A DNA stretch of 64,000 nt from Escherichia phage UB. The translations under genes were made by a program, and so were the position numbers. The notes beneath the pieces were generated by a model. That model was not told where the DNA came from. It worked only from the letters and a program-made list of their open reading frames with translations, and searched no databases. The stretch is from the sequence record MH383160. One strand, 5' to 3'. How positions within the stretch are numbered: the stretch's first letter is position 1; the number at the start of each line of letters is the position of its first letter. Of the stretch, positions 4,850-63,417 are shown one piece after another.

Positions 4850-7800
4850 TTACATCTCCTAATGACGAAATCAAAATCGATATACATTAATATTATCATC
4901 TGTGAAGCAATCATGGTTGTGCACATCCATGAAAGTACTAAACACTTTATCATATAAAGTTGTATGTTCTTCATGAATAGCAGCATCTAGCATGTATTCT
5001 CCACCACTTCCCATAAAGAAAGTGTAGTCTTCATGTAGATATTCAAGTTTTTTAATAAACTTTCCTTTAGTTAAAATCATATGAATAACATAATCTTTAG
5101 AAAGAAGCACACAATGGCAACTTAACTTTCTGTCAGGTATAACTGGTACTTTATTAATTAACCAATCCAGTACTTTATCAATTTCACTTACTACCCCACT
5201 AGCACTGAATAAACGGTCATGTACATATAAAGTTTTTTGATTAACAACTCCATATTGATATTTTGGTCTTAGTGGGAAAAAACCAAATAAGTTTCGTGGT
5301 ATAGTTGACGTAACTCTAGAATCGGTAATCAATAAATTTAATCGTTTATCAATATAAACAGTTGTCATATTAAACCTTATCTAAGAATTTATCGTATATA
5401 TAAAATTCTTTATCGGTGAATACATTAATTCTAGTATCGAATCTTTGCATTGTGTTCATATACAATGAACTTTTTAAATAAAAATACAAAGCAACAAATT
5501 CTGATATATGCATATTCTTTTTATTGTTACATAAATTCTTAAGCATTTTGATGCTATCAAATTCTTTTTCATCAAATCTGTATTGGTAAAAATTGTATCT
5601 ATTGGAACGGCACTCATAGATACGAAGTGCCATTATATCAATACATGCTTTAGATTTACAGTACTTATTCAATACGTCATAATCACCCGTACATAATGCT
5701 ACAAAGATTCTATGTGCGAGTGTAGCTTTGCCTTCAATCGTATAATAGCCAAAAAATTTAATGATTAAGTACTGAATGAATGTAATCATTTGATTTAGAA
5801 TTTCTCCGAAATTACTAGAGTGTCATCATAATCTTCTGCAATATCATGAAGAACTTTTAAGTTACTTTCACCAGAAACGCTTTTTACTTCGTTCAAAAGA
5901 TAGTTTAGATCAACTTTAGTTACTTTTTCTGAATCAAACACACAGAAAGTTAATTCAGCGTTTGGACAGATCTTCTTCAGATTATCAGCAACAACTTGTT
6001 TGAAGTTGAAAGATGGGGAAGCAACCAGGTTAACTGCAACGAGAATAGATTTCATAATGTTTTCCTTTTTAGCTGATAATTAAATTAGGAGCACATTGTA
6101 CTCCATATTATTTGTTATGTCAAATACTTTTAGATACCAAGTGCAGTAGATAACTCTTTACGTTTGTTATATGAATCAGATTCAATCTTACTTTTCTTGT
6201 TGAAAAGGGATTCGATATCCTTATAGATTGCTTCGATAGATTTAGTTACTACCCATTCTGATTCTTGAAGCATACCTTGGAGTCGTGCGTACTCAACTTT
6301 GATAGTACTGCGAAGTTCTTCACAAACTTCTTCATTCTTAATTAGTGCAGCACTAAGTTCTTTGACCTTATCGATGTTCATAAGTTCCTTACTCTAATTT
6401 GTTTTTAACAAAATAATTATATATAACATACTAAATTATGTCAAGTATTTTTAGTACCTTCTTCTGCCATTTTTGTGATATACCAATTAAGTATTGATTT
6501 GTGTACCATAAAAAATGTGAATGCAAATATAGCAATAGCTGCTGATGTAACACTATTAGATAATGACCCAAGTTGGATGTTAGTACCTAAAATAACAATA
6601 AATGGATACAACACAATCAATCTACTGTAAGGTTCGTCTCCAGTATCACGGAGAAATCCAAGCCTTTCATGATCAGTATCCATAGTGACAATTGGACAGA
6701 ACATAAGTGCAGACATAAGAGCAATACCAATTTGTGCTACATTGGAAATTGTAAACCACAAAGGATTTAAACCATATGAAATATTATTTTCTGTACAGTA
6801 GTAACCAAACGAATTGAATGCACAAACTAAAAATACAAAAATACAAATCTTATTATAGCCTCTCATTTGTTTAGCTCCGTTAATTTTCGTTTAACTTCTA
6901 GATCATGAAACTCATCGGCATATGAGTTTTGAACAGTTCTGATGTATTCCAACATAACAAACATAGTTCCACATACCCATAGATATGTATAGTAATCAAA
7001 TACAAATGCATATAACATACACGGTACTAAAATGAAAGTGTAAACAAAACTATATCGTGTAGTTCCAAATACTTTCAGATATAACAAACGTCGATAATCA
7101 CGGGCAAATGTATTGATGCACACTGAAAATGTAATTAATGTATACCATGAAATACCCTGAATTAAACCTGAAACATTTAAAAGTTTATGTTCATCGGAAA
7201 ACCCCAGTGCATTTAGCACTGGAGCCATAACCCAACCAATAATACTAATAAGAAAAAGATATTTTGCATTACTTAGTGTGAACATATTACTTTAGTCCCC
7301 ATGCTTTTTTGATTGCATCAACAGAGTTTTGGTCCACTACTTCCTTTTTTTCTGATGTAGTTTGAAGTTTATTAATTACATATTCCTTTGCATCTTTTTC
7401 TATCATAAATTTACCATCAACCAACACACCAAAAACTTTAGAATTTCGGGCTGGATATGGATTAATTTCATCAAGAGTACGGACTTTCTTATCAACTATA
7501 ATGGCTTTGATGTAACCAGTTTCAAGTACTGTTGTAATCACAGTCATTTCAATTGCAACTGGTGAATCTTCCCAATACGCAATCCATTTAGTAAAGCTAC
7601 GATCAGGTGAATCTTTTGTGCATTTTAATTTAATTGCACTATTAAAAATGTATTGTTTAAAATTGTCATCGACAACTTCACTAATACTAAAATAACCTTC
7701 ACGCTCTTCAACATTACGTTTGAAATTTGTAGCTAATACATCCATTTTCCATCCCCCTTGGGTTACTTGGTGTGTTAATTATAATACTAAGAATCTTTGT

Positions 7801-8262
7801 TGTCAAACTTTTCCCTCAAATATTTTTCTATTAATCTAATTTGTGTTGGTGGTAAGATAAAGTAATCGTACATAGATTTACTACCATGTATCGAACAACC
7901 TACACTAATACTATAATCATATGGATATAAGTATATTGGATCTTGTATATCAGGTATGAAAACTATTCTTGATATATTACCATTTCCTATTCTTACTTGG
8001 ACGTTATCATTATTATTAATATAATTTCTTATACAGTACTCAATTATACCATTTACTTTAGAATCATAACCATAATTTTTATATTCAGGAAAAATGAAAT
8101 AGCGTTCATGGTATAGATATGAGCATAGTAATGCTGGGAAAAAATTCCAAAAACCTTCATGCTTTGCAATTGTTTGTGCATATTTAAAATGATTAGCATT
8201 ACTAAAAATATTATACAGCACAAAATACACAAATGGACTTACCAACAACACTATTGTTAACA

Positions 8263-25114: not shown

Positions 25115-25963
25115 ATTTTTAATTATTAGAAAGAACAATTTTTGAAACTGGTAAATCTGTATCATTTACACGTTGTTCATTATATCCATTCTGTACAAGA
25201 ATGTCAATAACTTTAGACTTATCAATTGTAAATGATTCTAACATATCATATCGGTAATAACCAATAGTCTGACTGAACTCATATTTTCCTGGCTGTTGAC
25301 GACAACACGTATTTGTTTCAGCCATAATCTTATTGATTAGGTAATATGTTTCAGTACTATCAATATTTGGAATATAGATCTTATCATCAAAATGAATTAC
25401 TTCATGTTTATTCATAGAGTGATTCAATCTCCGCTTTAAGAATGGAAATGATCTCTTTCTGAAGGCCAGTAATTTCACTGTTCAAAGATGATAGTCGCTT
25501 CGATAATGCCATGAATTGCTTTGCATCTTCTTTAGAACGGTCATTTCGTACTTTATCAGAACTCCAGTTAGCATATGATTGCTCATCTTTCCTGTTAAGG
25601 ATATCCCAGTCTAAACGTACTAGTTTACGTTCTTTCTTCAGTTCGCTTAAGCGAGATTTCATTTCGTCTTTAGTCATTAGATTGTTCCTTTCATGAAGTC
25701 TGGAATAACGATTACGATAGGAGGATTATACTCTACATAACCATTTTTTGTCAATAGACTTTTAATATCTGAAATCACATTATCATGCTGTTCAATATCT
25801 TTATCACAAAAGATTTCCAATTCTTTCTGAAACGGTTTTTTAACCGAGATGTTTTGAGTCAGTGTTTGGATTCGCTGTAACATATCAATTGGATCTGGAC
25901 TGAACTCATTACCAACATAAAGAGTACCAGATGCATCTTTTTCTAGCAAGACTTCTAAAATTT

Positions 25964-27585: not shown

Positions 27586-27614
27586 ATTATACATACTCCA
27601 TTTTCATGTGTCAA
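27586..27614 (-). promoter_or_regulatory. Consensus sigma-70 promoter (TTGACA-N17-TATAAT)
   Basis: Both hexamers are perfect consensus on the minus strand. Confidence 0.6.
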
Positions 27615-37726: not shown

Positions 37727-39285
37727 AATTATTCTTCTTCTCCTGAAGGTGTTCCACGTAGTTTATCAAAATCAACCCAAATACCATGCTGGTTTTTAAA
37801 TCGACATTTCTCATAGTACCAACTATAGTCCGTTTCAACACCTTGTGAAATAGAACGCACACTACAATCATACATATTATATAAATGTTCCCTGACAATA
37901 TATGTATTAATCAGTACAACGAATAATACAATAATACCACAGATTTTAGGATGGTCCATAATCAAGTCAAGTACTGATCTAGTTTCAGAACTATCAATCT
38001 TACTTCTACAAATAGTAACAATTTTAAGAACAGCGAATGATACCAGTAATGAAATTACAATAACACTTAAATAAATTAGCATAAATTACACTCCTACACC
38101 AAAACGTAAAATAATATTATTAACAAACACTAAATCAAAAGGTGACTTTGGTTCAGATACTGAGTACTGAAATGATTCTGCTGCGAAATTTTCTCTATTA
38201 TACCATGTTTCAGAATTTATTAGCATTTTTTTATCACCAATCGTCACTGAATGTAATGGAACATTTGAAGAAGAATTTATTGAATATGCATTAAGATTAC
38301 CGTTTTCATCTAATGTGATACTAAGATAATATCTTTTCTCAATATCAGGAATAAGTTCTTTTGTATACGAATAGATTGAATCAACCCATTCATCATGTAC
38401 ATTTTCTGCACCAACCAGGTGTCCGAATGACAAATTACGTTTAACTGGCTTTGTTCCAGGACGAGTTAGAATGAATTGTTTTGTTAAGTAAAAATTATTA
38501 TGTTTTACTTCAATATTAACATTTTTAAAATTCACCACTTTATCATATACATTTCGAAAAACTGTTATATCCCAAGTACTAATTTCATCCATAATACTTA
38601 TCACCAGTTCTTCTAGTTCTTGTATAAATGGCAAATCATCTTGATGAAATCTAGTCATGGTTTTCATATACCTTTTTCAAATTCATAATTTCAAGAATGC
38701 TGTATTCTTTATCACCAATCAAATCTTCAGTGAATGCAGTGGGGTCGGCATCGCTATACAACTTACCATTGATGATAACACAACCATTACTAAGATACAA
38801 TGCACTCATGATCTGTTGTCCTTCTTTCACATTTTGTGCTAGACCTGTATTTGTTACTACAAATCCATTTGTTGCTAATGATGATGTTAGTTCTGACCAT
38901 TCAACTGATATTAAGTCGCGATAGTCCTTAGATACTTTTATATTCACAATACAAGCAACTCGTTTAATAGGTGGAGTGCTAATCGTGTACATTTGTGGTT
39001 GTTGGTAATTAGAGTTGTATGTTTGTGGTGTTTTAACAGCAGTTCCTGAATTTTGAGTTGATTTGGTAATTACTGGTTCTACACTGGGGACTGTTGTTCT
39101 TAGTGATATAATACGTCCAGTTTCATCCAATTTAAGGACTAAACGATGAGTTTCATCCTCAGAGTAATAGGGAAACAAGCCACCGGAATTCATATTTTGA
39201 AGCATTTTAATTAATTCATAAGTATTTTTTAAAAACATAGTACACCCCATAGAAAAGGGGAGTACAAAGTACTCCCAACATTTAA

Positions 39286-39840
39286 TTATAGTTTAATTGA
39301 TTCTTGAATACCAGTATCCATTGCTTTCTTGGTACGTGTATCAGATACTACTGTACAAAGGTGTTCAATATTTTCACTTGGAAACGTATTCGAATCAAGA
39401 ATTTTGGAATTCCAGAAGCCTTTGCGGAACTTAGCATAATCAGTACACTGGTCAATTTTCATTTTCTGAAGATTGTTGAACTTTGTACGTCCTGTTTCAA
39501 TTGTCACCATCAATTCCTGATAAATTTTAGGATCAAGATTTGGAACCTGTTGTTGAATCTGTGACATTACAAACTTCTGGTCAACACCTTCACGCCCTTT
39601 AAAGTATGATTCAATCGTTTCTTTCAACGCATCTTTATACTTATCGGCTACTTGAACCTTATCTTGAATAGTAAGAGTATAATTGCTAAGTTGACTTTCT
39701 GATGCATCATAGTACTTTTTAATGTTTCCTTCAAACTCAACTGCACGATCATGTGCACCAACATACATACTAATAGAACCAAACACCATTAGTACGATAA
39801 CTACCAAAATACCAATTAACGCAAGGAGTTTACCATTCAT
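39286..39840 (-). CDS. Membrane-anchored protein, possibly LemA-like (184 aa)
   Basis: Single N-terminal TM helix (LLALIGILVVIVLMVFGSI) and a soluble helical domain; family assignment by architecture only. Confidence 0.3.
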   Translation of the reverse strand: MNGKLLALIGILVVIVLMVFGSISMYVGAHDRAVEFEGNIKKYYDASESQLSNYTLTIQDKVQVADKYKDALKETIESYFKGREGVDQKFVMSQIQQQVPNLDPKIYQELMVTIETGRTKFNNLQKMKIDQCTDYAKFRKGFWNSKILDSNTFPSENIEHLCTVVSDTRTKKAMDTGIQESIKL

Positions 39841-40931
39841 AAATCGTTATCCCTCATATAAAGGCCAATGAAAATAGACAGAATCAACAACACAATGGAA
39901 GCACCGATAAGAACATCTTTTCTAGGTTCCATTTTTACTGACAAGTACTCAAACTCTTTATTAGAGAGTCTCTCAAAATGTTTGTCAATATTATGTACTT
40001 CTTTAACTAGTAAGTCAAGAGTTAATTTTTCATTTAATGCATCAATACGCATCTTTGCATGTAACTCTTCATTCTTCATTCCTTGTGCAAATGATGTACT
40101 GTAAAATTTGACAACGTTACCATCATTGTCAATACCAAAGAACATAATAACATCATTCTTCTTACCACCACGCCACGATGCAAGGGTAGCATCAATAAAA
40201 TCAACATCTTTGTAATCATAAACTAGTACTTGGATGTTTACCTGCTTTCGTGCACCCATCGTTTTTAGCTCATTACGAAGGTATTCATCGTAACCATCAA
40301 CGTTGTAATTTGTAGTGTTAATTACGTGATGTGTTTTGTAATAATCAACTACACTTGGGTATTCTGGAATAGTACTAAGATACTTTTCATCATACATGTT
40401 GTGTAGTTCTTCAGGACTAAACAATGAGTTCTTATCAGCAAATAGATAGTTGATATATGAACTCTCTGCTGCGGCATAGTCACCAATAATAACTTGCTGC
40501 CAACGTGGTGGTGTCATTGTACCTTGACGGTTCACACGTTCAATCTCAAACTCACCTACTGTACTTTTCACATACCAATCAACTTCATATGAGTAATCAA
40601 AAACCTTATATGATTCACACTCACGATGTGATTTACCTTTACTATCATATCGCGTATGGCACTTCTCATGCCATGTATAGTGCTTACATGAACTAGATTG
40701 TGTGCAATATTCTTTGTGGCTGTATTTTGAAGTTACTTGACCATTCAGAATCTCAACATCATAAAGCTGGCTATAGTTGATTGCGTATGAAATACCAAGA
40801 ACAAGAGCCGCACCAACCAGACAACAACCAATATGAATCAATAGTTCTTTAGTACTGATATGCTTATCGTACATGTATTTCATAACGAATACAACGATAA
40901 GAGCAGGTATTAACAGAATAATGAAATTCAT
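39837..40931 (-). CDS. Membrane protein (364 aa), TM helices at both ends
   Basis: Hydrophobic segments at the N-terminus (two) and C-terminus (VLIGASIVLLILSIFIGLYM); Cys/His-rich central part. Confidence 0.5.
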   Translation of the reverse strand: MNFIILLIPALIVVFVMKYMYDKHISTKELLIHIGCCLVGAALVLGISYAINYSQLYDVEILNGQVTSKYSHKEYCTQSSSCKHYTWHEKCHTRYDSKGKSHRECESYKVFDYSYEVDWYVKSTVGEFEIERVNRQGTMTPPRWQQVIIGDYAAAESSYINYLFADKNSLFSPEELHNMYDEKYLSTIPEYPSVVDYYKTHHVINTTNYNVDGYDEYLRNELKTMGARKQVNIQVLVYDYKDVDFIDATLASWRGGKKNDVIMFFGIDNDGNVVKFYSTSFAQGMKNEELHAKMRIDALNEKLTLDLLVKEVHNIDKHFERLSNKEFEYLSVKMEPRKDVLIGASIVLLILSIFIGLYMRDNDL

Positions 40932-40934
40932 GTA

Positions 40935-41624
40935 TTAATCCATTTTAAGCTTGTTTAGACAGAATGAAATCTGGATTGCTTCACGTGCTGCATCAAATAG
41001 TGGATGATGTAACTCCAACCCATTAATCCCACACGTATTTGCATATGTGATAAATTTATCCAACTGTACCGAAACGATTTCATCCATTTCAATACGAGAT
41101 TCATCATTCAATAAACGTTTCAATGTGCGTGCATTTTCAGGTGCATCATACTTCCACAACTCACCAGCGTTCATTAGTTTTAAATGGTTTGCTTGTAAAA
41201 TGCTACAATCGAAGTTACATCCGTTACCCCAGACTGAATGAGGAACTTCTTCGCCATAATCATTGTAACGTAATTCTTTCCAGAAATCAACAATACTACT
41301 GTATGCAAAAAATCGTCGTGATTGACCATTCGGTCCATACAGTTCAGGTGCTTTGAGTTTCATAGTACTGGCAACTTCAGCATATGCATTAGGGTATTCT
41401 TTCTGACATGTATTCATCCAAAAATCCATTGCACCTGCGTCTGATTTTAAACCAGTTGTAACTTGATCCTGGTATGGTAATTTAATATATAAGAACTGAC
41501 GAATGTCATTTTCAGGTTTACTTGGAACTACTACTGCTGCGTAATTTGGGATAATAATATCATAACCGGAAAGTTCAGGTGTTCCAAGAGCTTCAATATC
41601 AACACTAATATGACGACGTTTCAT
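40935..41624 (-). CDS. dexA: DEDDh 3'-5' exonuclease, DexA-like (229 aa)
   Basis: Exo I ISVDIEALGT; Exo III HHPLFDAAREA; size matches T4 DexA. Confidence 0.65.
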   Translation of the reverse strand: MKRRHISVDIEALGTPELSGYDIIIPNYAAVVVPSKPENDIRQFLYIKLPYQDQVTTGLKSDAGAMDFWMNTCQKEYPNAYAEVASTMKLKAPELYGPNGQSRRFFAYSSIVDFWKELRYNDYGEEVPHSVWGNGCNFDCSILQANHLKLMNAGELWKYDAPENARTLKRLLNDESRIEMDEIVSVQLDKFITYANTCGINGLELHHPLFDAAREAIQISFCLNKLKMD

Positions 41625-41703
41625 AAGTTAGTTCCTTATCTGTACATTAAAAAGAGTGCGTTTTCAATAAGATTATATTAAAAACGCACTCATATGTCAA
41701 CTA

Positions 41704-42840
41704 TTACTTGTTAGCTTTTTCGGCAATTTCACGAAGAGTGTCTTCCAGTTCATAGGAAAGTTGTGCAATTTCCTGTTTAGCACGTTCACGTTCCAATTTA
41801 CCTTTTTTCTCTTCTTCAATAACTGCTTCAATACTGTCAATCATCGTTTTATGTACATTACGCAAGGTTTTAATATCCACAATACCACGGTTGTTTGCCT
41901 TTGCTGCGTCCAACATATTTGCTGCAACCATTTTAGAGTTAGTTTCCAAAAGACGGTTTGTCTCATTATCAATTAGATTGCCTAGTTCATTATCCTTACG
42001 TTGACGCTCGGAAATTAACTGTTCAGCCAATTGAGACTTCCATGCTGGAATAACAACAGATTTTAAATCTTCAAACTTAGAAACAGTGTTCAAGTTTACT
42101 TTTTTCATACTCATCAAACGTGGACCACTTAGCTCGCACATCATGATAAGACGACGAATCTTATCTTCTTGTTTAGAAAGTGCTTCACAAATCATCTTTT
42201 GCTCTTGAATAGCAAAAGAGTCTACATTTTTGTCTGCTTGCATTTCTAATAATAATGCATCTTGTGTTTTAGTTACTTCTTCTAATCCAACTAATGTATC
42301 ACGTAATTCAAACAAATATTCTTTGTTTTCATTATATGCTTTATCAAGCCATTCACATTCTCCGTGCTGGCGATTAATACCAGTTTGAAGAGTTTTCATA
42401 ATTTCGTCAATTTGCTCTTTACTGTTTTTGTACTGATCACCTACTTTCTGTTGAGCATTAACAAAGAATTTCTTAATACGACCAACAATTGATTTATCTT
42501 CTTGAAGACTGTCAATATCAACTGCACGAGTCAACGTAAGAATTGTGGTGATTGATTTACCAAACTCGGTATTGTCATCCGTTACATTAACTTTAGACAT
42601 AATTTCATCAGCCAAACGCCCAACAGCAGCACCAGCAGTTGTACCAACAGTATTGATGTTTTGAACTGTTAGAGACATAGTATTTCCCTTAACATCTTTC
42701 AGTACTGGTAGTGATTTTGTAGTTTGGTTAAAAATATCACTTGCATCAATTGTATGACCTTTAGATGCAGTTTTAGTAGTGCGTTTTGCTGATTTAGCTG
42801 CGGTGGATGCTTTTTTAGGATTGATTTCTTTCTCGGACAT
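41704..42840 (-). CDS. TelA-like (toxic anion resistance family) protein (378 aa), tentative
   Basis: Size, Lys/Ala-rich disordered N-terminus and long helical, coiled-coil-like body; assignment by overall pattern only. Confidence 0.35.
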   Translation of the reverse strand: MSEKEINPKKASTAAKSAKRTTKTASKGHTIDASDIFNQTTKSLPVLKDVKGNTMSLTVQNINTVGTTAGAAVGRLADEIMSKVNVTDDNTEFGKSITTILTLTRAVDIDSLQEDKSIVGRIKKFFVNAQQKVGDQYKNSKEQIDEIMKTLQTGINRQHGECEWLDKAYNENKEYLFELRDTLVGLEEVTKTQDALLLEMQADKNVDSFAIQEQKMICEALSKQEDKIRRLIMMCELSGPRLMSMKKVNLNTVSKFEDLKSVVIPAWKSQLAEQLISERQRKDNELGNLIDNETNRLLETNSKMVAANMLDAAKANNRGIVDIKTLRNVHKTMIDSIEAVIEEEKKGKLERERAKQEIAQLSYELEDTLREIAEKANK

Positions 42841-42888
42841 TTAGTGTTCCTCGTTTAATTTAATATGATGTGCTGCTCTGTGATAAAC

Positions 42889-42917
42889 ATTATACGGGCA
42901 GCACGTATGATAGTCAA
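42889..42917 (-). promoter_or_regulatory. Sigma-70-type promoter (TTGACT-N17-TATAAT)
   Basis: Near-consensus hexamers upstream of the TelA-like gene. Confidence 0.55.
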
Positions 42918-42925
42918 GTATTTTT

Positions 42926-44053
42926 TTACTCTTTGTTACCATATGCCAGATTACGAATAATTTCTACAGTACTCTCATCCACAGCTTTACCTGTCTGTGA
43001 TTGTAAACGATTGATAATCAAAGGAATAGTAATAGTTTGAATATCTACCATACGATTCATATCAACTTGATATTGCTTACTTGTTGCAATAATGCTCGTT
43101 TCAGTCATGGAGGTGGTGATTCCCATTTTCATAATACGTTCTAATGTTAATTCATATTCAAACGCATCATCCACACAACGTAGTGCGTATTCACAACCCA
43201 ACTTACCATATTCAAGTTCATTTTTGATTTCATTAACTTCGTTTCTAAGTTCTGAAAACATCGTACTAAGACCACTAAACTTATTAGTGTCATACTTAAC
43301 TGCTTCATTTAGTGCTTTCATCACTTTTGGCAAATCTGATGGTTGCACTTTGATATCAGTTTTACCAAACAATTTCTGTGTAAAGGTCGGCTTCAATGGG
43401 AACAACGTTTCCAACGCAACAGTAAGGTTATTCATAAGCATTCTAATATAATCACTATGCTGTTGTAATGCTGAGTTAAGATCCAATTGACGTTCTGAAA
43501 TTTGTTGAATCTTAGTTCCAATTTCTTGTGCACAAACTGGTAAGTTTACAAACCAGTCTAGTACTTTTACTGAATTCTTTTCAATAGTACTAGGGAATTC
43601 AACCCATCTTTCAATGTCATCAATTCTGCTATCGTCTGGGTTGATAGGTTTTTTCTTAAGAACAATAGGTGCAGGTACATCTGGTGATGTTTGTACCAAG
43701 TCTAAACGTGGTTTGGCACGACCTTCTTTCCATTCACGATATTCACGCTCTAATGGCGGTACTGGCATGTTAGGATCAATTCTAATATTACTAAAATGAA
43801 TTTTATCCTTCATTAAATCAAGAACTTTCAGACGTTTATTATCAAAATAGATTTCATCTAATGACAGAGTTTTTACATCAAATAACGGATTACCCAATGA
43901 GTCATAGGTGCGGCGAACAATTACATTATAAATGTATTTTTTGTTTGATGAACGGTCATATTGTTTCAATAAAGAGTTCAGTACATAATTATAGTTAAAT
44001 TCTTGAATCTCAACTTCTTTGCCATTTTCAATGAAAAAATATTTACCTTTCAT
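42926..44053 (-). CDS. Hypothetical protein (375 aa), helical C-terminal half
   Basis: Long ORF; possibly distantly related to the adjacent TelA-like protein. Confidence 0.5.
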   Translation of the reverse strand: MKGKYFFIENGKEVEIQEFNYNYVLNSLLKQYDRSSNKKYIYNVIVRRTYDSLGNPLFDVKTLSLDEIYFDNKRLKVLDLMKDKIHFSNIRIDPNMPVPPLEREYREWKEGRAKPRLDLVQTSPDVPAPIVLKKKPINPDDSRIDDIERWVEFPSTIEKNSVKVLDWFVNLPVCAQEIGTKIQQISERQLDLNSALQQHSDYIRMLMNNLTVALETLFPLKPTFTQKLFGKTDIKVQPSDLPKVMKALNEAVKYDTNKFSGLSTMFSELRNEVNEIKNELEYGKLGCEYALRCVDDAFEYELTLERIMKMGITTSMTETSIIATSKQYQVDMNRMVDIQTITIPLIINRLQSQTGKAVDESTVEIIRNLAYGNKE

Positions 44054-44149
44054 TATAAAACCTCATAATCAATTAAAATTTACGCGATGGTGATATTGTA
44101 CATACTTCGACTACACATGTCAACACCTGAAAAGAAAAAAGGACGCACC

Positions 44150-44968
44150 TTAGTGCATCCTTTTGTTACTTTTATCCTTGTACCATACAAATGTCTTGAC
44201 AGGTGGATATTTTTCATTCTTTGGTGGTTCAGGCATGTCGTATACAGTTGCATTTCTAAACTTAAGAATGTATGTGTCCATTAAACGGATTATACAATAG
44301 TTTAAACATTTTTGTGCTCTTTCTTTCCAAAAATGTTTATATGGTTCTGGACAACCAAGATAATCAAGTTTATACATACTCATAGCAACTTGCATAAATC
44401 TTTGGGCCGAGAATTTTCGCTTATCAATCTTACTTGCTCTGTGTTGGTCACATGTCCAACTTGATACACCAGGCAAGTGACAAAACAAATCAAAACTAAC
44501 CATACTATCAAAGTATTTGTTATGACCATGTAACTCACCATAAAATACAGCTTCTGACACAGTATCATATAATGAGAAATTTGAATGTATATGTTCATTA
44601 TCAAAAATACTTTTTAAATCTTTATAAGTTTCTGGAACAGGTGGCTCAGGTAATACTTCACCGAATACTTCAACACACCATATCTTCCATAAACCTTTTG
44701 TAAATTTATTTTCTAATTCTCTATCACTATCAATATAAAAAGTTTTTTCATTTATGAAAACTTTTCTAGCCATGTATGCTTTAAAAATTGCATCTGGATC
44801 AATGTCTTCACGATTTACATCATCCCAGCCTTTACCAATTCTTGAAATTTCAAATCTACGCATATACATACGACATGCTAAATCTTTAGTAAGGCTGCGA
44901 CGATACTTTTCATCCTGATGTAATTTGGTTGTTTCGTGAAGAGATTTAAGCATATTTAAAATTCTCAT
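44150..44968 (-). CDS. Hypothetical protein (272 aa)
   Basis: ORF; no recognisable motif. Confidence 0.5.
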   Translation of the reverse strand: MRILNMLKSLHETTKLHQDEKYRRSLTKDLACRMYMRRFEISRIGKGWDDVNREDIDPDAIFKAYMARKVFINEKTFYIDSDRELENKFTKGLWKIWCVEVFGEVLPEPPVPETYKDLKSIFDNEHIHSNFSLYDTVSEAVFYGELHGHNKYFDSMVSFDLFCHLPGVSSWTCDQHRASKIDKRKFSAQRFMQVAMSMYKLDYLGCPEPYKHFWKERAQKCLNYCIIRLMDTYILKFRNATVYDMPEPPKNEKYPPVKTFVWYKDKSNKRMH

Positions 44969-45645
44969 CGCAACACCAAATATTTCCCGTTTCTTCCAAT
45001 TACATATTGATCACCACTTCGTAGTACTGTATAGCTTTCCCCTAGTATGGAACTAAGACGCGAAGTGTCTAATTGTGTATCATTCTTTAATAACTTTTTC
45101 ACATATGTTTCTGAAACAAAACCGCTTCCAGTACTGTAATGTAATTTACCATATGCTGTTTTTAATGTCAACATGTTTCCTTCTTTGATTACTGAAACAC
45201 CAGCATAATCAAGGAACTCACTAATTGAACTAGGAATACCCAAATCAATTCTCTGCTGTATTTCTTCAAAATCAACATCGATTGGATCATTAACACCATA
45301 TAGTTGGATTTTCCAACCAGGGTCTGGGCAAATATTTTCAATTGTTTTAATTAAACGTAATAGTTTTTCTGGGAATTCAGCATTTCGTTCCATTTCTACA
45401 TAAACTTGATAACGACCATCTAGATTTGGTGTTTCTGCTGCTTCAGTATCAACTACGTCAATAGGTGATTTTTCAATAAAAGAAGATAAATCATATGCTG
45501 CATCAAAGTTGTTAAGTACCTGAAACATAATAACAATATTACTATCTTCAATTTTAGGAGTATATTCATCAACACTAATGATAGGATGAATCAAATCTTT
45601 GAGAACTTGCGGACGTAAGCCTTGTTCATTTAATTTCTTTTTCAT
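44965..45645 (-). CDS. Hypothetical protein (226 aa); sliding-clamp-sized
   Basis: Size close to T4 gp45 and located in the clamp-loader operon, but no sequence-level match seen. Confidence 0.5.
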   Translation of the reverse strand: MKKKLNEQGLRPQVLKDLIHPIISVDEYTPKIEDSNIVIMFQVLNNFDAAYDLSSFIEKSPIDVVDTEAAETPNLDGRYQVYVEMERNAEFPEKLLRLIKTIENICPDPGWKIQLYGVNDPIDVDFEEIQQRIDLGIPSSISEFLDYAGVSVIKEGNMLTLKTAYGKLHYSTGSGFVSETYVKKLLKNDTQLDTSRLSSILGESYTVLRSGDQYVIGRNGKYLVLR

Positions 45646-46208
45646 TACATTCCACCTTCTTGTGTCTCATCCGTTACTTCTACATCCAAATCCACATCAT
45701 CACCAGTTACAGGTTCTTCAATATTCTCAGGAGAATTCATTGGATTACTATTGAATTCTGCTGCCATTAGTTTATATTCATCAAAACTTTCTGGATTAAT
45801 CAAGTTTCGTGGAATCTGCACTCTAACCAATAGTACTGGGATTCTTTCATTTTTTGGTATACGTACAGAGCCAGATTGTGTCGCTACACTTTTCATGTCA
45901 GCTTGACGATTTGGTTCTTTAATAGGAGTTATTTCATAATCAGCTTTAACATATACTTTAGTTCCATGTTTCTCTAAAATAGAGAATGCGGTAGGATCGG
46001 GAAAATTTTCACGATAGTATTTAAATGTAACAGTACACCAATACTTACTTACAATTGGCCCCTCTACCAACTCACCCTCAATAATTCCTTTATACGCATA
46101 TAAATCATTATCATCGAAATATTTCTCTACAGCAAGAAGTATATCTAACATACCACTGTTATCATACAACTGCTGAATAGCATTATCTGTATAATCTAAA
46201 TCGTCCAT
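45645..46208 (-). CDS. Hypothetical acidic-tailed protein (187 aa); clamp-loader small subunit not excluded
   Basis: Same length as T4 gp62; acidic C-terminus DDVDLDVEVTDETQEGGM; no sequence-level match seen. Confidence 0.5.
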   Translation of the reverse strand: MDDLDYTDNAIQQLYDNSGMLDILLAVEKYFDDNDLYAYKGIIEGELVEGPIVSKYWCTVTFKYYRENFPDPTAFSILEKHGTKVYVKADYEITPIKEPNRQADMKSVATQSGSVRIPKNERIPVLLVRVQIPRNLINPESFDEYKLMAAEFNSNPMNSPENIEEPVTGDDVDLDVEVTDETQEGGM

Positions 46209-53711: not shown

Positions 53712-55676
53712 TTATTCCATCCAGTTCTTACGATCATCTGCACGCTTCTTGTTGAAAATCAAATCAAGAGTTTCTCCAAGACGTCCATCATCGGTAATCG
53801 CTACTGCAACACTATTAGTGAATGCATCACGGAAGTTTGCTTTTTCTAAAGTACCCAAACCTTTTGCACGCGTTGCTTTCCAACCTTTCCAATCATCTGG
53901 ATTATATTCATGTACGTTATGACCATAGAAGTATTTTGTTTCTTTACCTTTCTCAAGAATGATGAATGGTGTTTTGAATACATATACAAATGGATTTTCA
54001 GGGTCTTGAAATAATTCAGGCCAAAATTTAAATAGGAAGTTGCATACTAAAGCACCAATGTTCTTCCCATCCTCATCTTCATCAGCACAGATATAAAGCT
54101 TGCCATAATTTAAGTCGGCACGTTCTGCTTTAACACCTGGAACTAAGTTGATACTAGCCATTATATCATGTAGTGCCATTGAATCCATTAGTTCTTTGGT
54201 CTTTTCAGTACCACTGACGTTCATAATCTTACCACGTAATGGTAGAATACCATGAATACTAGGTATACGAGCACTAGCCATGTTGGAAATTGCAGAGTCA
54301 CCTTCTGCTATCAAAAGAATACATTGTGAGCGGTCAGTACCAGTACTATCAAGTAGCTTTGCAACTTTACCTTTCAGTAGTTTCTTAGCGAGGCGACGGT
54401 CTTCTTCTGCATCTTTCTTATTGGTACGTGCAGCACAACGTTCAAATATTTCATCAACCCATTCTTTGTTTTTCTTAACTAATTCATCAAACCATTCTGT
54501 ATTCATTGCTTGTTGAATTGGTCGAATTACGTTTTCATTAGTTAGTTTAGATTTAATCTGTGAGTTGAATGAAGGTGCTTTCATAGTTGTGACATTGTAA
54601 ATCAACAAACCTTCTTCAATATCAGAACGATTAGGTTTCATCCTACGTTTCTTCGATTCTTTCTCCAATGCAGTTCCTACACCCAATGAAAAGAATTTCT
54701 TGAAGGTGTCAAGATGTGTACCACCATCAAATGCAGGAGCATTATTAACCAATCCATGCATATGGAAGTTTGTATTCATTCCAGATACTGCATTTGGAAC
54801 AATATAAAAAGTACTGTTAAAATTGAAAGAATCATCTTTAACATTCAACTGCATCAATTTAGATGCATTGAACAATGCTTTCTCGGTGTTACCTTTAATA
54901 ACAATACGTTTACCATTCAAAAATATTTTATAAGTTGGGTTGGCGGCTGCCATTTCTTTAAGAATACTGTAAAGTAATTCAGTAGGTAATTTTCTATTTG
55001 GAAAAACTTCTTTACTCAATGTAAAACGAATTGTTGTTCCAGTCTTATCTGTTTGTACCTTTCGAATGGTAGGCTCATGTACATGAAGTTCAGGGAACAT
55101 AATAGTTCCTTCCTCAAACTTCTGATTGAACTTATAAAACCCATCATAACCATCATTACTGCTTTGTGTTTTATATGGACGACCTTGGCGATGAATTTCC
55201 AATTCTGCCTTAGAACTAACAATCATCGCAACTGAACCACCCAATCCATTCTGACCAATAGTTTCATCACGTTTTGAATCATCAAAGTTTCGACCAGTTT
55301 TTGTTTCGGTCATTACCATAGTACATAGGTTTTTTTGATACTCTGGTACATAATCAATTGGAATACCACGACCATTATCACTAATCTCAAATGATAGTTC
55401 TTCTTCATTGAAATCAACTTTCAATACAGGTTCTTTAGTTCCAGCTTTTTTAAATTCATCTAAGCTGTTATCAATAATTTCACGTGTAGCAGTAAGAATT
55501 GCAGGAACCCATTCTACGTTCTTAACCTCATATCCTGATTCGCCAAAAATCAGTACTTGACTTTCATGTACTGAACGAGAACCAAGGTACATCTCTGTAC
55601 GCAAACGAGCATGTTGATAATCATTAAGTCGTTGAACATCATGTTCCTGTAGAACAGCACTTTCTTTCTTAGCCAT
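53712..55676 (-). CDS. DNA topoisomerase II large subunit, fused T2/T6-type gp39 (GyrB-like ATPase plus Toprim, 654 aa)
   Basis: ATPase motifs IIDNSLDEF and SDNGRGIP; Toprim ILLIAEGDSA; single uninterrupted ORF. Confidence 0.85.
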   Translation of the reverse strand: MAKKESAVLQEHDVQRLNDYQHARLRTEMYLGSRSVHESQVLIFGESGYEVKNVEWVPAILTATREIIDNSLDEFKKAGTKEPVLKVDFNEEELSFEISDNGRGIPIDYVPEYQKNLCTMVMTETKTGRNFDDSKRDETIGQNGLGGSVAMIVSSKAELEIHRQGRPYKTQSSNDGYDGFYKFNQKFEEGTIMFPELHVHEPTIRKVQTDKTGTTIRFTLSKEVFPNRKLPTELLYSILKEMAAANPTYKIFLNGKRIVIKGNTEKALFNASKLMQLNVKDDSFNFNSTFYIVPNAVSGMNTNFHMHGLVNNAPAFDGGTHLDTFKKFFSLGVGTALEKESKKRRMKPNRSDIEEGLLIYNVTTMKAPSFNSQIKSKLTNENVIRPIQQAMNTEWFDELVKKNKEWVDEIFERCAARTNKKDAEEDRRLAKKLLKGKVAKLLDSTGTDRSQCILLIAEGDSAISNMASARIPSIHGILPLRGKIMNVSGTEKTKELMDSMALHDIMASINLVPGVKAERADLNYGKLYICADEDEDGKNIGALVCNFLFKFWPELFQDPENPFVYVFKTPFIILEKGKETKYFYGHNVHEYNPDDWKGWKATRAKGLGTLEKANFRDAFTNSVAVAITDDGRLGETLDLIFNKKRADDRKNWME

Positions 55677-55737
55677 TTGAATTCCTTATCATGTCTCTTT
55701 GTCATAAAACATTGTATCACCAATGTTGTTTCTGTCT

Positions 55738-55780
55738 CAAAAAAAATATCGGGACAATATGCCCCGATATATTTTTATTT
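55738..55780. terminator. Bidirectional-looking intrinsic terminator
   Basis: A9 run, hairpin ATATCGGG-(9 nt)-CCCGATAT, then ATTTTTATTTT. Confidence 0.5.
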
Positions 55781-56565
55781 TACTAACATAAGTTGTAGTT
55801 CAGCACTTGGACTTGATTCATCATCACTCCAGTACTTATGAACCTTATCTGGACTCGCCTTTGCAAGTACTTCACCACCACCAACAATATAAACTTGATG
55901 GGAACCAATTAAACGGGTCCAGAATTTAATTGCATCATCAGTATGCAGACTATCACTCAGAACTTTAATACCATGTGATACCATATCCATAAAGATATTA
56001 TAAATTATACCTTTAGTTCCAGTTTTAGAAGCAGTTGCGGCAATTTCAAAAACGTTTTGAACACCAAGTACTGCATCATTGGATAAATGCCCACTAACTA
56101 TAGCAAGCTGTTTACCAGACTTATCGTAAGCGATAAATCCAGTACCGTTTTTGTTCATATATACATCATAGTCTTTATGTTCTGCGAACTTAACCATGTT
56201 GTGCTTACCTGTCATTTCGGCAGTTTTATCGACAAACTCGTCTCGGTCTTGACCTTGAAAACTATCGAAACGTTGTGGCATTTCATCCAACTTATCTTTG
56301 TCGTCTTCACATGAATCCATTATATCACAAGTTCTGTCGTCTGTATCAGCTAATTCTGCATCTTGTACAATATCGACTAAACTACGCATACTTGCTTCTT
56401 TTACTTTATTAGGAAGTTTAGAACTTTTTTTAAGATTTCCTTCCTTTTCATCAGCGGCATTCCATTCTTTAGCAGCACTTTGCGAAATTCCAGCTTTCTT
56501 TGCAAATTCTGGATTGTGTGCGGCGGCTGCGAAGAATTTAGCCTGACTTTTACTCTTACTTGGCA

Positions 56566-56566
<1 letters not shown>
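55775..56566 (-). CDS. Hypothetical protein with DUF3008-like N-terminus (263 aa)
   Basis: N-terminus MPSKSKSQAKFFAAAAHNPEFAKKAG resembles the MPxKSKxQ motif family; remainder unassigned. Confidence 0.4.
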
Positions 56567-59806
<3,240 letters not shown>

Positions 59807-60093
59807 GTAATAAAAGCTCCAATATGATTTTAATGTTTTGTTCGATAGTAATTATAGGATAGAACATTAGTTCTGTCAAGCACTATCATTGTGTTTTTTA
59901 ATTGCTTCACAGATTGCTTGAACTTGAACAAGATAAGTTTTTGCAAATTCTGCTTGGGTTCGCACACGGGGGTTCGGTGCGTCTTTGATCATAAGTTCTA
60001 GGTCATAAACTACCTTATCAAAAACTCCCTTGTCTTCAATAATACGATCATAAAATGTTTTGTCAGTCATGTCAAGAACTCCATGTTATAAAA

Positions 60094-60684
60094 TTATAAT
60101 TTAACGTAAGATACTACAGATGCATCAGAAACAGAAGGAACATTAAGATACACGTTCTCATACTCAATAAAATCAACAGTACTCGTAGTAAGAGCATTCT
60201 TGATACGTTGTATGGTTTTTTGTACAGTAATTTCTTCATTTTCTAGTGCATTAGTGCCATTACCTTTCAATGAATCATTGATTAGTGTTTGGATAATCTC
60301 AGCAGCTTTTGCTGTTTTCATATCTTCAGTAGTTAGTGCTGCTTGTTCTGCAACACTCAAAGTACTAAGAAAAGGTTGATAACTAATATATCCAACGGTG
60401 ATTGTTGCACCAGTGGGAATCGTTTTTGCAGTTCCTGGTGTAGCAAATTCAACATTGCTATAAACTGGTACTGAATAAGTTGAAAGCAAACGAGAAAGTT
60501 GTAGGTAACGCAAAAGTGCAATTGACTTATCAATAGTTTGCTGGTCAGTCGGTGCGGTTGTTGGGGAAGATGAATCATAATCACCATACATATAATATGG
60601 GATATTATCTAGGTTCGTCCCTGCAACTTCAATTTTAAATACTTGTAGTAAATTGTTCATTGTATATTCTTCTCCATAATACAA
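60094..60684 (-). CDS. Hypothetical protein (196 aa)
   Basis: ORF; no recognisable motif. Confidence 0.5.
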   Translation of the reverse strand: MYYGEEYTMNNLLQVFKIEVAGTNLDNIPYYMYGDYDSSSPTTAPTDQQTIDKSIALLRYLQLSRLLSTYSVPVYSNVEFATPGTAKTIPTGATITVGYISYQPFLSTLSVAEQAALTTEDMKTAKAAEIIQTLINDSLKGNGTNALENEEITVQKTIQRIKNALTTSTVDFIEYENVYLNVPSVSDASVVSYVKL

Positions 60685-60743
60685 AACACTTTTGATTATT
60701 TATTATTAAAAATCAAAAATATTTACGTATAACATTTAGTCTT

Positions 60744-62087
60744 TTAGAATCGTGCATTTTGTCTCAACATAACACTATAACGTGGACGTGTCATGGCAGT
60801 GTATAAAATTCTACACTTAGTATCATTTGTACCAATACGTTCAATAAAATCAGTATCAAACCAAATGTTATCAAAAGTACTTCCTTGCGATTTATGAACA
60901 GTTGTTGCGTAAGGATAATTGATAATATGCAATTTATTCTTTATTACATAGTAATCCTGCCACATATATGGTTTCTTTGTCAATGGATTTATTTCTTTTT
61001 TCTCAATATCCTTAACAAGTTTATCTAGTTTTTCGTCCATTGCAATTCTTGTTTCTGGTCCTACGCCTAAAATATAACTACCATTAGGTAAACGGAATTG
61101 CCAACAATCAATCCCCATAAAACTTTCACGTTTCACTTCAGGACATTGTATAATTTGTTGTACTACATATGGACTATTCTCAGTTATGCTTTCAAAAACA
61201 ATTGGTTCACCTTTAGTAAATTCATCTGGTACTTCAAATAGTTGACTTCTAATGTAAATATTAGCCAAATTAACTCTATAGTTAGTATATGCTAAGATTT
61301 TATTTTCATTTACGAAATCAAATATTTTTTTAGATGAACCCTTGTTTTCCATAATAAATTCACGATAAACATCTAAAAATAAATCTTCATCATCAATAGG
61401 TGTAATAGTGCTTAAACCATATGTCTGATGCATAATATCAAATGGATTTTTACTAGTTCCAATACACTCTCGAATAGCAGTTGCAACTGCCAAAATCGGA
61501 TTATCCAATGCTTGACGTAAAACCTCAGTTAACTCATATTGAACAGGTACATCAAACGTAGGAGACAATTTAGTCTCTCCCATTGTACCTTCGGACTCAA
61601 CTGGGGGCAATTGACAACGATCACCAATGAATAAAACTGCTCGACGGACACGCCACAATTGATCCTGAATATGTTGGAATAATTCTTCTGAAATCATACT
61701 ACACTCATCAACAATAAGAATGTCAACGTTAGTATTACTAACTTTACTTTGGGGATCATGTTTCAGTACTTGACGATTCTTTTCATATACTAATTTTAGT
61801 CCTAAAAAAGAGTGTATTGTACTAACTTGTGCATCTTCCTTAGTAAGACCAGCATTATTGATTAGCATATTACGAATAACAGCATTGGCTTTATGTGTAG
61901 GTGAAGTTACTGCAATATTATAGTTTTTACATAGTGCTTTTACAATCTCAGCAGTAGTGAATGTTTTTCCAGTTCCTGCTGGGGCAGACAAAACCGAAAT
62001 GGTCTTACCTGCATAGTTGTAAACACGATCTATAAAATCATCAAAGATTTCTTGTTGCTTATCCGTAAGCTTAATTTTACTCATCAT
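60744..62087 (-). CDS. dda: Dda-like SF1B DNA helicase (RecD-like, 447 aa)
   Basis: Walker A SAPAGTGKTF; Walker B ILIVDECSM; C-terminal YATTVHKSQGSTFDNIW; size as T4 Dda. Confidence 0.85.
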   Translation of the reverse strand: MMSKIKLTDKQQEIFDDFIDRVYNYAGKTISVLSAPAGTGKTFTTAEIVKALCKNYNIAVTSPTHKANAVIRNMLINNAGLTKEDAQVSTIHSFLGLKLVYEKNRQVLKHDPQSKVSNTNVDILIVDECSMISEELFQHIQDQLWRVRRAVLFIGDRCQLPPVESEGTMGETKLSPTFDVPVQYELTEVLRQALDNPILAVATAIRECIGTSKNPFDIMHQTYGLSTITPIDDEDLFLDVYREFIMENKGSSKKIFDFVNENKILAYTNYRVNLANIYIRSQLFEVPDEFTKGEPIVFESITENSPYVVQQIIQCPEVKRESFMGIDCWQFRLPNGSYILGVGPETRIAMDEKLDKLVKDIEKKEINPLTKKPYMWQDYYVIKNKLHIINYPYATTVHKSQGSTFDNIWFDTDFIERIGTNDTKCRILYTAMTRPRYSVMLRQNARF

Positions 62088-62114
62088 TCCCTCGACTGAT
62101 TTTTACATTTCAAG

Positions 62115-63417
<1,303 letters not shown>

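Follow-up and report, generated by a model that had tools for sequence, protein, structure and literature searches.

A probable mosaic of two candidate envelope cassettes, g1-TelA and g4-g5, in the jumbo coliphage UB

Gene layout and two separately inherited cassettes

The 64,000-nucleotide stretch of Escherichia phage UB that was analysed here (record MH383160; the window hereafter) carries, between positions 39,286 and 44,053, five consecutive genes, g1 to g5. They encode a soluble helical protein (g1), a TelA-family protein (g2, called TelA below), an exonuclease (g3), a predicted inner-membrane protein with a TPM domain (g4) and a LemA-like single-pass membrane protein (g5). Our analysis of the sequence suggests that this region is a mosaic of two independently inherited two-gene envelope cassettes, g1-TelA and g4-g5, with an unrelated exonuclease gene between them. 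An earlier sequence-only reading had described four consecutive genes under one promoter. Its outer limits stand, with g1 starting at 44053, g5 ending at 39286 and every long open reading frame in between on the minus strand, but the gene number does not: there are five genes, and g3 (41624-40935) had been skipped.

Phage UB belongs to the Asteriusvirus type of 121Q, PBECO4 and phAPEC6, the ~350-kb ‘Rak2-like’ jumbo coliphages. Over positions 39000-44300 it shares 99.7% identity with Escherichia phage JP4, and about 20 further Asteriusvirus genomes, including 121Q, PBECO4, phAPEC6, G17 and slurp01, are more than 99% identical over the same interval. All five genes are found together in 35 records. 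Because of this near-identity to published genomes, the genes themselves have already been deposited many times, with GenBank labels on the relatives that read TelA-like or tellurite resistance, ‘metallopeptidase’ or exonuclease, hypothetical, and ‘LEMA protein’ or ‘virion structural protein’. The TelA and ‘LEMA’ labels are thus already known for this phage group. Two further labels in circulation, ‘S-layer domain-containing protein’ for g1 and ‘G patch domain-containing protein’ for the 272-aa gene upstream of it (44150-44968), have no Pfam support. Scans with NCBIfam and PADLOC returned no match for any of the five proteins (PADLOC at E ≤ 1).

The two pairs are distributed separately among phages. 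TelA or g1 homologues were not found within 4-5 kb of g4-g5 in CBA120, ICP1, XacN1, phiN3 or Ea35-70, and the 8.7-kb gp134-TelA locus of Klebsiella phage FBKp34 has no g4-g5 pair. The g1 and TelA genes occur without g4 and g5 in the Stephanstirmvirinae, and g4 and g5 occur without TelA in the Ackermannviridae, in ICP1 and in jumbo phages of Erwinia, Xanthomonas and Sinorhizobium. Among Salmonella-phage records, 9 have TelA and 166 have g4 and g5. The whole five-gene block is syntenic only in Rak2-like phages, namely RaK2, CBB and Munch and, judged by coordinates, Serratia phage BF and Yersinia phage fHe-Yen9-04.

Transcription signals divide the block as well. Three sigma70-type promoters lie in the intergenic gaps and strong terminators follow, so the genes appear to form two transcription units, one of g1-g2, in which a further promoter precedes g2, and one of g3-g4-g5 (Table 1). 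The internal promoter P2 is the one that had been taken to drive all of the named genes. It is a genuine near-consensus sigma70 site, but it cannot drive g1 because it sits downstream of this gene. Folding of 42880-42925 gave no stable hairpin between g1 and TelA (z 0.24), and TelA should therefore also be readable from P1, as no terminator precedes P2. The promoter of the second unit, P3, overlaps the terminator of the first, with its -10 hexamer and spacer located inside the hairpin stem-loop. This overlap at 41654-41700 could couple termination with initiation. At both equivalent spots, after TelA and after g5, terminators have been annotated by others in G17 and Munch. In the second unit a gap of 3 nt separates g3 from g4, and the stop codon of g4 overlaps the start codon of g5 as ATGA. 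The one-mismatch site in the 3’ end of g4 precedes the start codon of g5 by 120 nt.

Table 1. Genes and transcription signals at the locus (window positions)
Feature	Position	Strand	Description
Terminator of preceding gene	44164-44137	-	hairpin -17.5 kcal/mol, z -5.7, plus U-tract; followed by P1
P1	44095-44123	-	promoter, TTGACA-17-TACAAT, 11/12 matches, upstream of g1
g1	42926-44053	-	375 aa, soluble; N-domain, Pro-rich linker and C-terminal helical domain
P2	42889-42917	-	promoter, TTGACT-17-TATAAT, 11/12 matches, between g1 and TelA
g2 (TelA)	41704-42840	-	378 aa, TelA family, soluble, all-helical
P3	41672-41700	-	promoter, TTGACA-17-TATAAT, 12/12 matches (perfect consensus), ahead of g3-g4-g5
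Terminator of g1-TelA unit	41654-41691	-	hairpin -22.1 kcal/mol, z -9.5, plus U-tract
g3	40935-41624	-	229 aa, Rv2179c-like DEDDh 3’-5’ exonuclease
g4	39837-40931	-	364 aa, predicted inner-membrane protein; Cys-rich beta domain and TPM domain
Possible internal g5 promoter or chance match	39960-39988	-	TTGACA-17-TCTAAT, 1 mismatch, within 3’ end of g4
g5	39286-39840	-	184 aa, predicted single-pass N-in membrane protein, remote LemA homologue
Terminator closing g3-g4-g5	39258-39276	-	hairpin -12.2 kcal/mol, z -4.9, then CUUUUC

The sequence-only reading had seen in these genes one coherent envelope-directed set, in effect a TelA-led four-gene operon transcribed from the 42889-42917 promoter, whose products work together in one complex. 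In its favour, the genes follow one another on the same strand, and the order g1-TelA-exonuclease-g4-g5 is kept across the Rak2-like jumbo phages. However, a -22 kcal/mol terminator and a perfect promoter stand between TelA and the last three genes, the named promoter comes after g1, the nuclease breaks up the set as a fifth gene, and the two pairs are never together outside the Rak2-like phages. A single operon is therefore very improbable. The envelope direction proposed for the set remains reasonable, and it applies to two cassettes with an exonuclease between them rather than to one operon under one promoter.

This exonuclease, g3, matches PF16473 (Rv2179c-like DEDDh; E 2e-8, 34.5 bits against a cut-off of 27) and phrog_255, and its catalytic motifs are in place, DxE at residues 9-11 and Hx4D at 206-211. 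The label ‘putative metallopeptidase’, which some records give to g3, found no support in Pfam scans. In the five other phage lineages, blastp of the regions flanking g4-g5 found nothing homologous to g3 (E ≤ 1e-3). The g3 gene appears to share a transcription unit with g4-g5, yet it lies outside both conserved cassettes.

With no more than one mismatch to TTGACA-17-TATAAT allowed, the window as a whole contains 23 near-consensus sigma70 sites where chance would give 1.9, and every one of them is on the coding strand. Examples on the minus strand are at 6416-6444, 7778-7806, 25179-25207, 27586-27614 and 59851-59879. Much of the 64-kb region looks like a series of early transcription units that depend on the host RNA polymerase. 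Since promoters of this host type can be used by the unmodified host enzyme, early expression of the two units is presumed.

The g4-g5 couple and its LemA-like and predicted TPM domains

Phage records with a tblastn match number 485 for g4 and 470 for g5, and the counts per host genus are nearly identical (g4/g5: Salmonella 166/166, Escherichia 62/62, Erwinia 29/29, Vibrio 22/22). Among the matches listed, the hosts are all Gram-negative and the complete phage genomes are all about 100 kb or larger. The two genes are adjacent, g4 then g5, in CBA120, ICP1, XacN1, phiN3 and Ea35-70. They are the only genes common to the neighbourhoods of these five phages and of the window, and a third conserved partner beside g4-g5 was sought in the five lineages and not found. 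A bacterial genome collection contributed 26 loci, mostly contigs of metagenome-assembled genomes, in which the pair is adjacent in ~19, that is wherever the contig permits, and once in reversed order.

The tightest coupling is seen in P0266, a metagenomic protein of 553 aa, in which a single open reading frame fuses a g4-like to a g5-like protein. The linker between the last transmembrane (TM) helix of the g4-like part and the TM helix of the g5-like part is short, and both soluble domains would therefore lie on one side of the membrane. A Rosetta-stone fusion of this kind supports physical interaction between g4 and g5 as well as a shared membrane side. A second possible fusion was seen at L047:3193-5310.

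Some copies of the pair lie on longer assemblies. Two isolate assemblies carry it, on a 282-kb contig of Variovorax sp. WDL1 and a 487-kb contig of Achromobacter anxifer LMG 26857. The Achromobacter copy has a RecA/UvsX-like gene directly upstream, and the neighbours of both copies are mostly without a PHROG match. On the contig L025, binned to the candidate phyla radiation, the phage-type pair (3992-5676) is followed 2 kb downstream by a canonical LemA gene (7566-8126) whose product is 40% identical to Ralstonia LemA.

The g5 protein had been called a LemA-like anchor. The layout agrees with this name, as one N-terminal TM helix is followed by a helical bundle, and the net positive N-terminus points to an N-in orientation. 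The family assignment depends on the level of comparison. The window protein itself has no match to PF04011 (LemA) at E ≤ 1, its homologues have no precomputed Pfam domain among the matches listed, and PDB searches with the single sequence or the close family found no LemA. The wider family, which comprises 1,408 representatives at 50% identity in a profile search, gives a different result. A 62-member profile has Thermotoga maritima LemA (2ETD) as its sole significant match in the PDB (E 3.7e-5, chain residues 10-154), and 14 of the 62 members match PF04011 (best E 6.5e-6), a number that no other family comes near. Aligned with four bacterial LemA proteins and 2ETD, the family scores 96.6% in hhalign (E 7e-10) over 150 columns from the TM helix on. 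Our data suggest that g5 is a remote branch of LemA, which falls short of strict Pfam membership and is recognised by profile homology. The only cysteines of its soluble domain, C132 and C162, are without exception either both present or both missing (13 versus 27 and 14 versus 48 sequences in two alignments), which is the pattern expected of a disulfide in a periplasmic domain.

In PHROGs and RefSeq, g5 is labelled ‘virion structural protein’ (phrog_1383; orf254 of CBA120), and many records repeat this annotation. The virions of phAPEC6, which is 99.2% identical here, contain 62 proteins detected by mass spectrometry (MS), including gp149c and gp150c, whose genes correspond to window positions 44965-46208. 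None of gp143c to gp148c, the counterparts of the five proteins and of the 272-aa upstream gene, was among them. The text of the CBA120 paper does not mention orf254. Furthermore, g5 is a predicted integral membrane protein, is kin to a bacterial membrane family and stands behind an early-type promoter. A virion structural role for g5 is thus highly improbable, and we regard the label as unsupported in this phage. The two genes that do correspond to virion proteins (44965-45645, gp149c; 45645-46208, gp150c; both on the minus strand and both MS-detected) stand amid early-type promoters, beside clamp-loader genes.

The description of g4 as a 364-aa protein with TM helices at its ends and a Cys-rich core is borne out by hydrophobic helices at residues 1-22, 27-54 and 336-361 and by the core itself. 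An N-terminal TM hairpin (2-20, 27-54), a Cys-rich beta domain (~57-160), a TPM domain (~185-320) and a C-terminal TM helix (338-361) are predicted. A confident AlphaFold2 model built on a 63-sequence alignment (pLDDT 92.7, pTM 0.81) has an N-terminal helical hairpin, a beta-rich domain at ~57-160, an alpha/beta domain at ~200-320 and a C-terminal helix. When compared with BFVD, the model matches an Agrobacterium jumbo-phage protein over its full length (E 9e-30), a UniProt ‘TPM domain-containing’ protein (E 7e-20) and two proteins of COG1512 (E 3e-3 and 1.5e-2), which we take to be the COG corresponding to TPM. According to this modelling, g4 carries a TPM fold. Sequence comparison is weaker but agrees in direction. 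The window protein does not match PF04536 (TPM), the g4 profile matched nothing among PDB sequences, and 4 of 63 homologues match PF04536 weakly (best E 0.013), although no other Pfam family is matched by more of them. In an alignment of residues 183-321 with the TPM domain of six bacterial proteins (hhalign 8.6%, E 0.004), the motif W-x-GGKKNDV falls on W-x-vG-x-NNGV. Phosphatase or nucleotidase activity, or metal binding, has been reported for some TPM members.

The Cys-rich beta domain of g4, encoded at about 40450-40760 of the window, has the consensus C-x-HSYSC-x-C ... SC-x3-C-x-TCY-x-H-x-YD-x-DW. Cysteines C76, C82, C91 and C105 are kept in 63-97% of the 63 homologues, most family members have at least four cysteines in this domain, and a search of the PDB with residues ~57-160 matched nothing specific. 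Across the family the N-terminus is nearly without lysine and arginine; a net positive charge is found in the TM1-TM2 loop and in the C-tail, and a net negative one on the flanks of the large domain. This charge distribution, together with the conserved cysteines, suggests an N-out topology with a TM hairpin, a large periplasmic domain and a C-terminus inside.

It is the TPM domain of g4, missed by the sequence-only reading, that ties the couple to a bacterial gene pair. Genuine LemA genes, found with 2ETD as query, adjoin TPM genes in all four replicons inspected (Bacteroides finegoldii, Methylomagnum ishizawai, Ralstonia insidiosa and Enterococcus faecalis), and Pfam confirms both families there. 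The g4-g5 couple is accordingly the phage counterpart of this LemA-TPM pair, and its TPM member is modified.

TelA and its upstream partner g1

The naming of g2 as a TelA-like protein is confirmed by a nearly full-length match to PF05816 that is well above the curated threshold (E 2.2e-37, 129.3 bits against a cut-off of 30, profile positions 14-331 of 332). The protein belongs to phrog_5890 and has no TM helix. TelA homologues are present in 257 phage records from several lineages, among them Rak2-like phages, Stephanstirmvirinae, Caulobacter phiCbK-like phages, Lactobacillus Herelleviridae and Lak phages.

The partner g1 (phrog_13312), found in 71 phage records, consists of an N-domain (residues 1 to ~125) and a C-terminal helical domain (~137-364), again without a TM helix, and has no Pfam match. 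Its sole phage relative outside the Rak2-like group is gp134 of FBKp34, a member of the Stephanstirmvirinae, which aligns with residues ~137-364 (hhalign 97.5%, E 8e-12). In FBKp34, gp134 lies directly upstream of TelA in a full ter cluster with the order TerC, vWA, TerD, TerD, gp134, TelA. This cluster occupies 54516-63259 of a virulent phage genome, its vWA protein is TerF-like, and a cell-wall hydrolase gene comes directly after TelA; phi92 has a similar TerC ... gp179-TelA arrangement. A g1-type gene stands directly upstream of canonical TelA in the window and in RaK2, CBB and Munch. All three plasmids inspected (IncHI2 of Salmonella, IncP of Azospira, and pCAR1.2) encode a ~260-aa protein, then TelA, then a hypothetical protein, which is the klaA-klaB-klaC layout.

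The kinship of g1 with TelA, which had been described as a second, related helical protein, is remote. Direct comparison gave nothing in BLASTP and 0.7% when small alignments of g1 and phage TelA were compared with hhalign. The plasmid KlaA proteins provide a bridge, as they are themselves members of PF05816 (E 2.6e-10 to 9e-7). The C-domain family of g1 is collinear with KlaA (hhalign 28-50%, E 6e-4 and 2e-4), the Munch g1 protein and Azospira KlaA are 28% identical over 176 aa in BLASTP, and a pooled KlaA and TelA profile matches the g1 C-domain at 87.6% (E 3.5e-6), against 8.6% (E 0.004) for a reversed-sequence control. We consider g1 probably a strongly diverged TelA paralogue of KlaA type that carries an additional N-terminal domain, so that the described relatedness is likely at this remote level and absent in the direct comparison. 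Because its C-domain is probably KlaA-like and the gene occupies the same place upstream of TelA, the g1-TelA pair mirrors the klaA-telA pair of plasmids. No solved structure of a TelA or g1 relative was found.

Proposed role, rival explanations and known systems

From the gene structures, families and folds, synteny and fusion described above, we infer topology, complex formation, timing of expression and function as follows. Both cassettes would be expressed early from host-type sigma70 promoters. For the soluble helical proteins g1 and TelA, the site of action would presumably be the cytoplasmic side of the inner membrane, as for klaA-telA and xpaC-telA. The three-TM protein g4 would expose its Cys-rich beta domain and TPM domain to the periplasm, and the single-pass LemA-like g5 would likewise place its helical bundle there. 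The periplasmic side is suggested by the charge distribution and cysteines of g4, the cysteine pair of g5, the geometry of the fusion and the predicted lumenal location of the MamQ C-domain. Translationally coupled, g4 and g5 most likely form one inner-membrane complex. The TPM/LemA complex might work in a chaperone-like manner or shape the membrane from the periplasm, and the TelA-family proteins might act from the cytoplasmic side. In sum, both cassettes may maintain, energise or remodel the host inner membrane and its complexes during the long infection by large virulent phages, to which we assign a probability of about 0.5.

Work on bacterial relatives is consistent with this proposal. TelA and XpaC influence nisin and daptomycin resistance and membrane lipid architecture: the xpaC-telA cluster of Enterococcus faecium modulates daptomycin binding and membrane lipid domains, and TelA mutants of Listeria are more nisin-sensitive (PMC6811118, PMC12791056). 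For TPM domains, a chaperone-like part in assembling or repairing membrane complexes has been proposed, and they accompany PspA in Bacillus subtilis (PMC11237479). The magnetosome, a compartment derived from the inner membrane, requires the LemA-family protein MamQ for the formation of its membrane, and a lumenal position is predicted for the MamQ C-domain (PMC3905215).

Several points weigh against a membrane-maintenance role. Early expression is presumed from the promoter consensus by itself, and the topologies of g4 and g5 were derived from the positive-inside rule and cysteine patterns rather than from a dedicated predictor. Sequence evidence for TPM in g4 is weak, and the claim leans on the predicted structure. 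The link of g1 to KlaA is borderline, given that helical proteins inflate the background, as seen in the E of the reversed control. TerC, TerD, vWA and KlaC/TelB genes were searched for within the window and none was found. The bacterial LemA-TPM pair itself has no established function, and the analogy may carry over little mechanism. Literature searches on phage TelA, phage LemA and LemA-TPM function returned no study of these phage genes, and the CBB and CBA120 papers do not mention them.

Alternatively, the pair might serve superinfection exclusion or lysis timing, as the sequence-only reading had also suggested. An early, periplasm-facing g4-g5 complex would block or sense secondary phages, comparable to Imm, Sp and rI of T4, and TelA and g1 might be related to this or not. 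The pair does stand behind an early-type promoter, is predicted to sit in the inner membrane with periplasmic domains, is confined, among the hosts listed, to large virulent phages of Gram-negative bacteria, and was not detected in phAPEC6 virions. However, homology to known exclusion or antiholin proteins is absent in PADLOC and Pfam, the pair lies outside any lysis cassette, and exclusion genes are usually lineage-specific whereas g4-g5 is conserved across very distant phages. Since the same domains are paired in bacteria, which have no such need, a housekeeping-type membrane role is favoured, and exclusion appears unlikely. A spanin/holin pair was also considered for g4-g5 and rejected in view of the early-type promoters, the lack of an endolysin nearby, the wrong sizes and topologies and the bacterial housekeeping homology.

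Counter-defence is a related possibility, in which the cassettes shield the inner membrane from depolarising or perforating abortive-infection effectors. The tie of the TelA family to tolerance of membrane-active agents would fit, and so would the presence of portable cassettes in many unrelated large virulent phages. Nevertheless, this explanation is purely inferential, no similarity to known anti-defence proteins was found, PADLOC, whose models cover defence and not anti-defence, was empty, and shielding would be a special case of membrane maintenance rather than a distinct mechanism. It seems less likely still than exclusion. A broader proposal concerns g4-g5 as an ancient, very widespread, phage-specific LemA-TPM branch that forms a periplasm-facing complex with a dedicated infection role, be it membrane remodelling of the MamQ type, protection from abortive infection that targets the membrane, or exclusion. 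The couple comprises at least 1,400 clusters at 50% identity and occurs in ~480 sequenced phages, with Ackermannviridae, ICP1 and Lak megaphages among its carriers. We hold this idea only tentatively, and on balance doubt it.

Maintenance or remodelling of the inner membrane by both cassettes is the reading we prefer, and overall the work is an annotation refinement with a testable hypothesis, not a new mechanism or kind of system. What is new is the predicted TPM fold of g4, a protein labelled ‘hypothetical’ in nearly all phage records listed; the recognition of g4-g5 as a widespread, tightly coupled phage LemA-TPM branch with a natural fusion; and the probable KlaA-like nature of g1, its conserved pairing with TelA and the corrected operon structure. 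The database labels ‘virion structural protein’, ‘metallopeptidase’ and ‘S-layer domain protein’ are corrected as well. LemA and TPM are among the commonest bacterial membrane proteins of unknown function, and what defines TelA is still a phenotype towards tellurite, which probably does not reflect its natural role. Many large virulent phage lineages keep a dedicated couple of divergent TPM and LemA proteins, some of them also a couple of KlaA-like and TelA proteins, which suggests that these are needed within the minutes to hours of an infection. ICP1, CBA120 and the jumbo coliphages are simple genetic systems in which a phenotype could be sought, and, if a dedicated infection role proved true, ICP1 and CBA120 could give a first functional handle on the bacterial LemA-TPM pair.

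Compared with known systems, the g1-TelA cassette resembles the kilA operon of IncP and IncHI2 plasmids (klaA-klaB/telA-klaC/telB) and the xpaC-telA cluster, since in both canonical TelA follows a shorter helical partner. It differs from kilA in the extra N-domain of ~125 aa in g1, in the marginal similarity of g1 to KlaA and in what comes after TelA, a terminator and then an exonuclease instead of a KlaC/TelB-like membrane protein. XpaC of the Firmicute cluster is a membrane protein, whereas g1 has no TM helix. In the ter cluster of FBKp34, of the Stephanstirmvirinae, the same pair of partner and TelA is found in a virulent phage, and TerC, TerD and vWA, which the window lacks, accompany it there. 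The g4-g5 couple is closest to the bacterial LemA-TPM pair (PF04011 beside PF04536), although both window proteins fall below the Pfam thresholds, g4 adds an N-terminal TM hairpin and the Cys-rich beta domain and lacks the Gly-rich tail of the YgcG type, and the phage order is TPM then LemA, whereas LemA comes first in three of the four bacterial examples. TPM assembly and repair factors such as TLP18.3/Psb32 of photosystem II, AscF of the mycobacterial CIII-CIV supercomplex and B. subtilis YdjH, encoded next to PspA, share 11-14% identity with the phage protein, and their partner complexes are absent or unknown in E. coli. MamQ is not known to be paired with a TPM protein. Like the predicted g5, MamQ is a single-pass LemA-type protein with a non-cytoplasmic C-domain, and by analogy it provides a precedent for the membrane shaping proposed here (PMC3905215).

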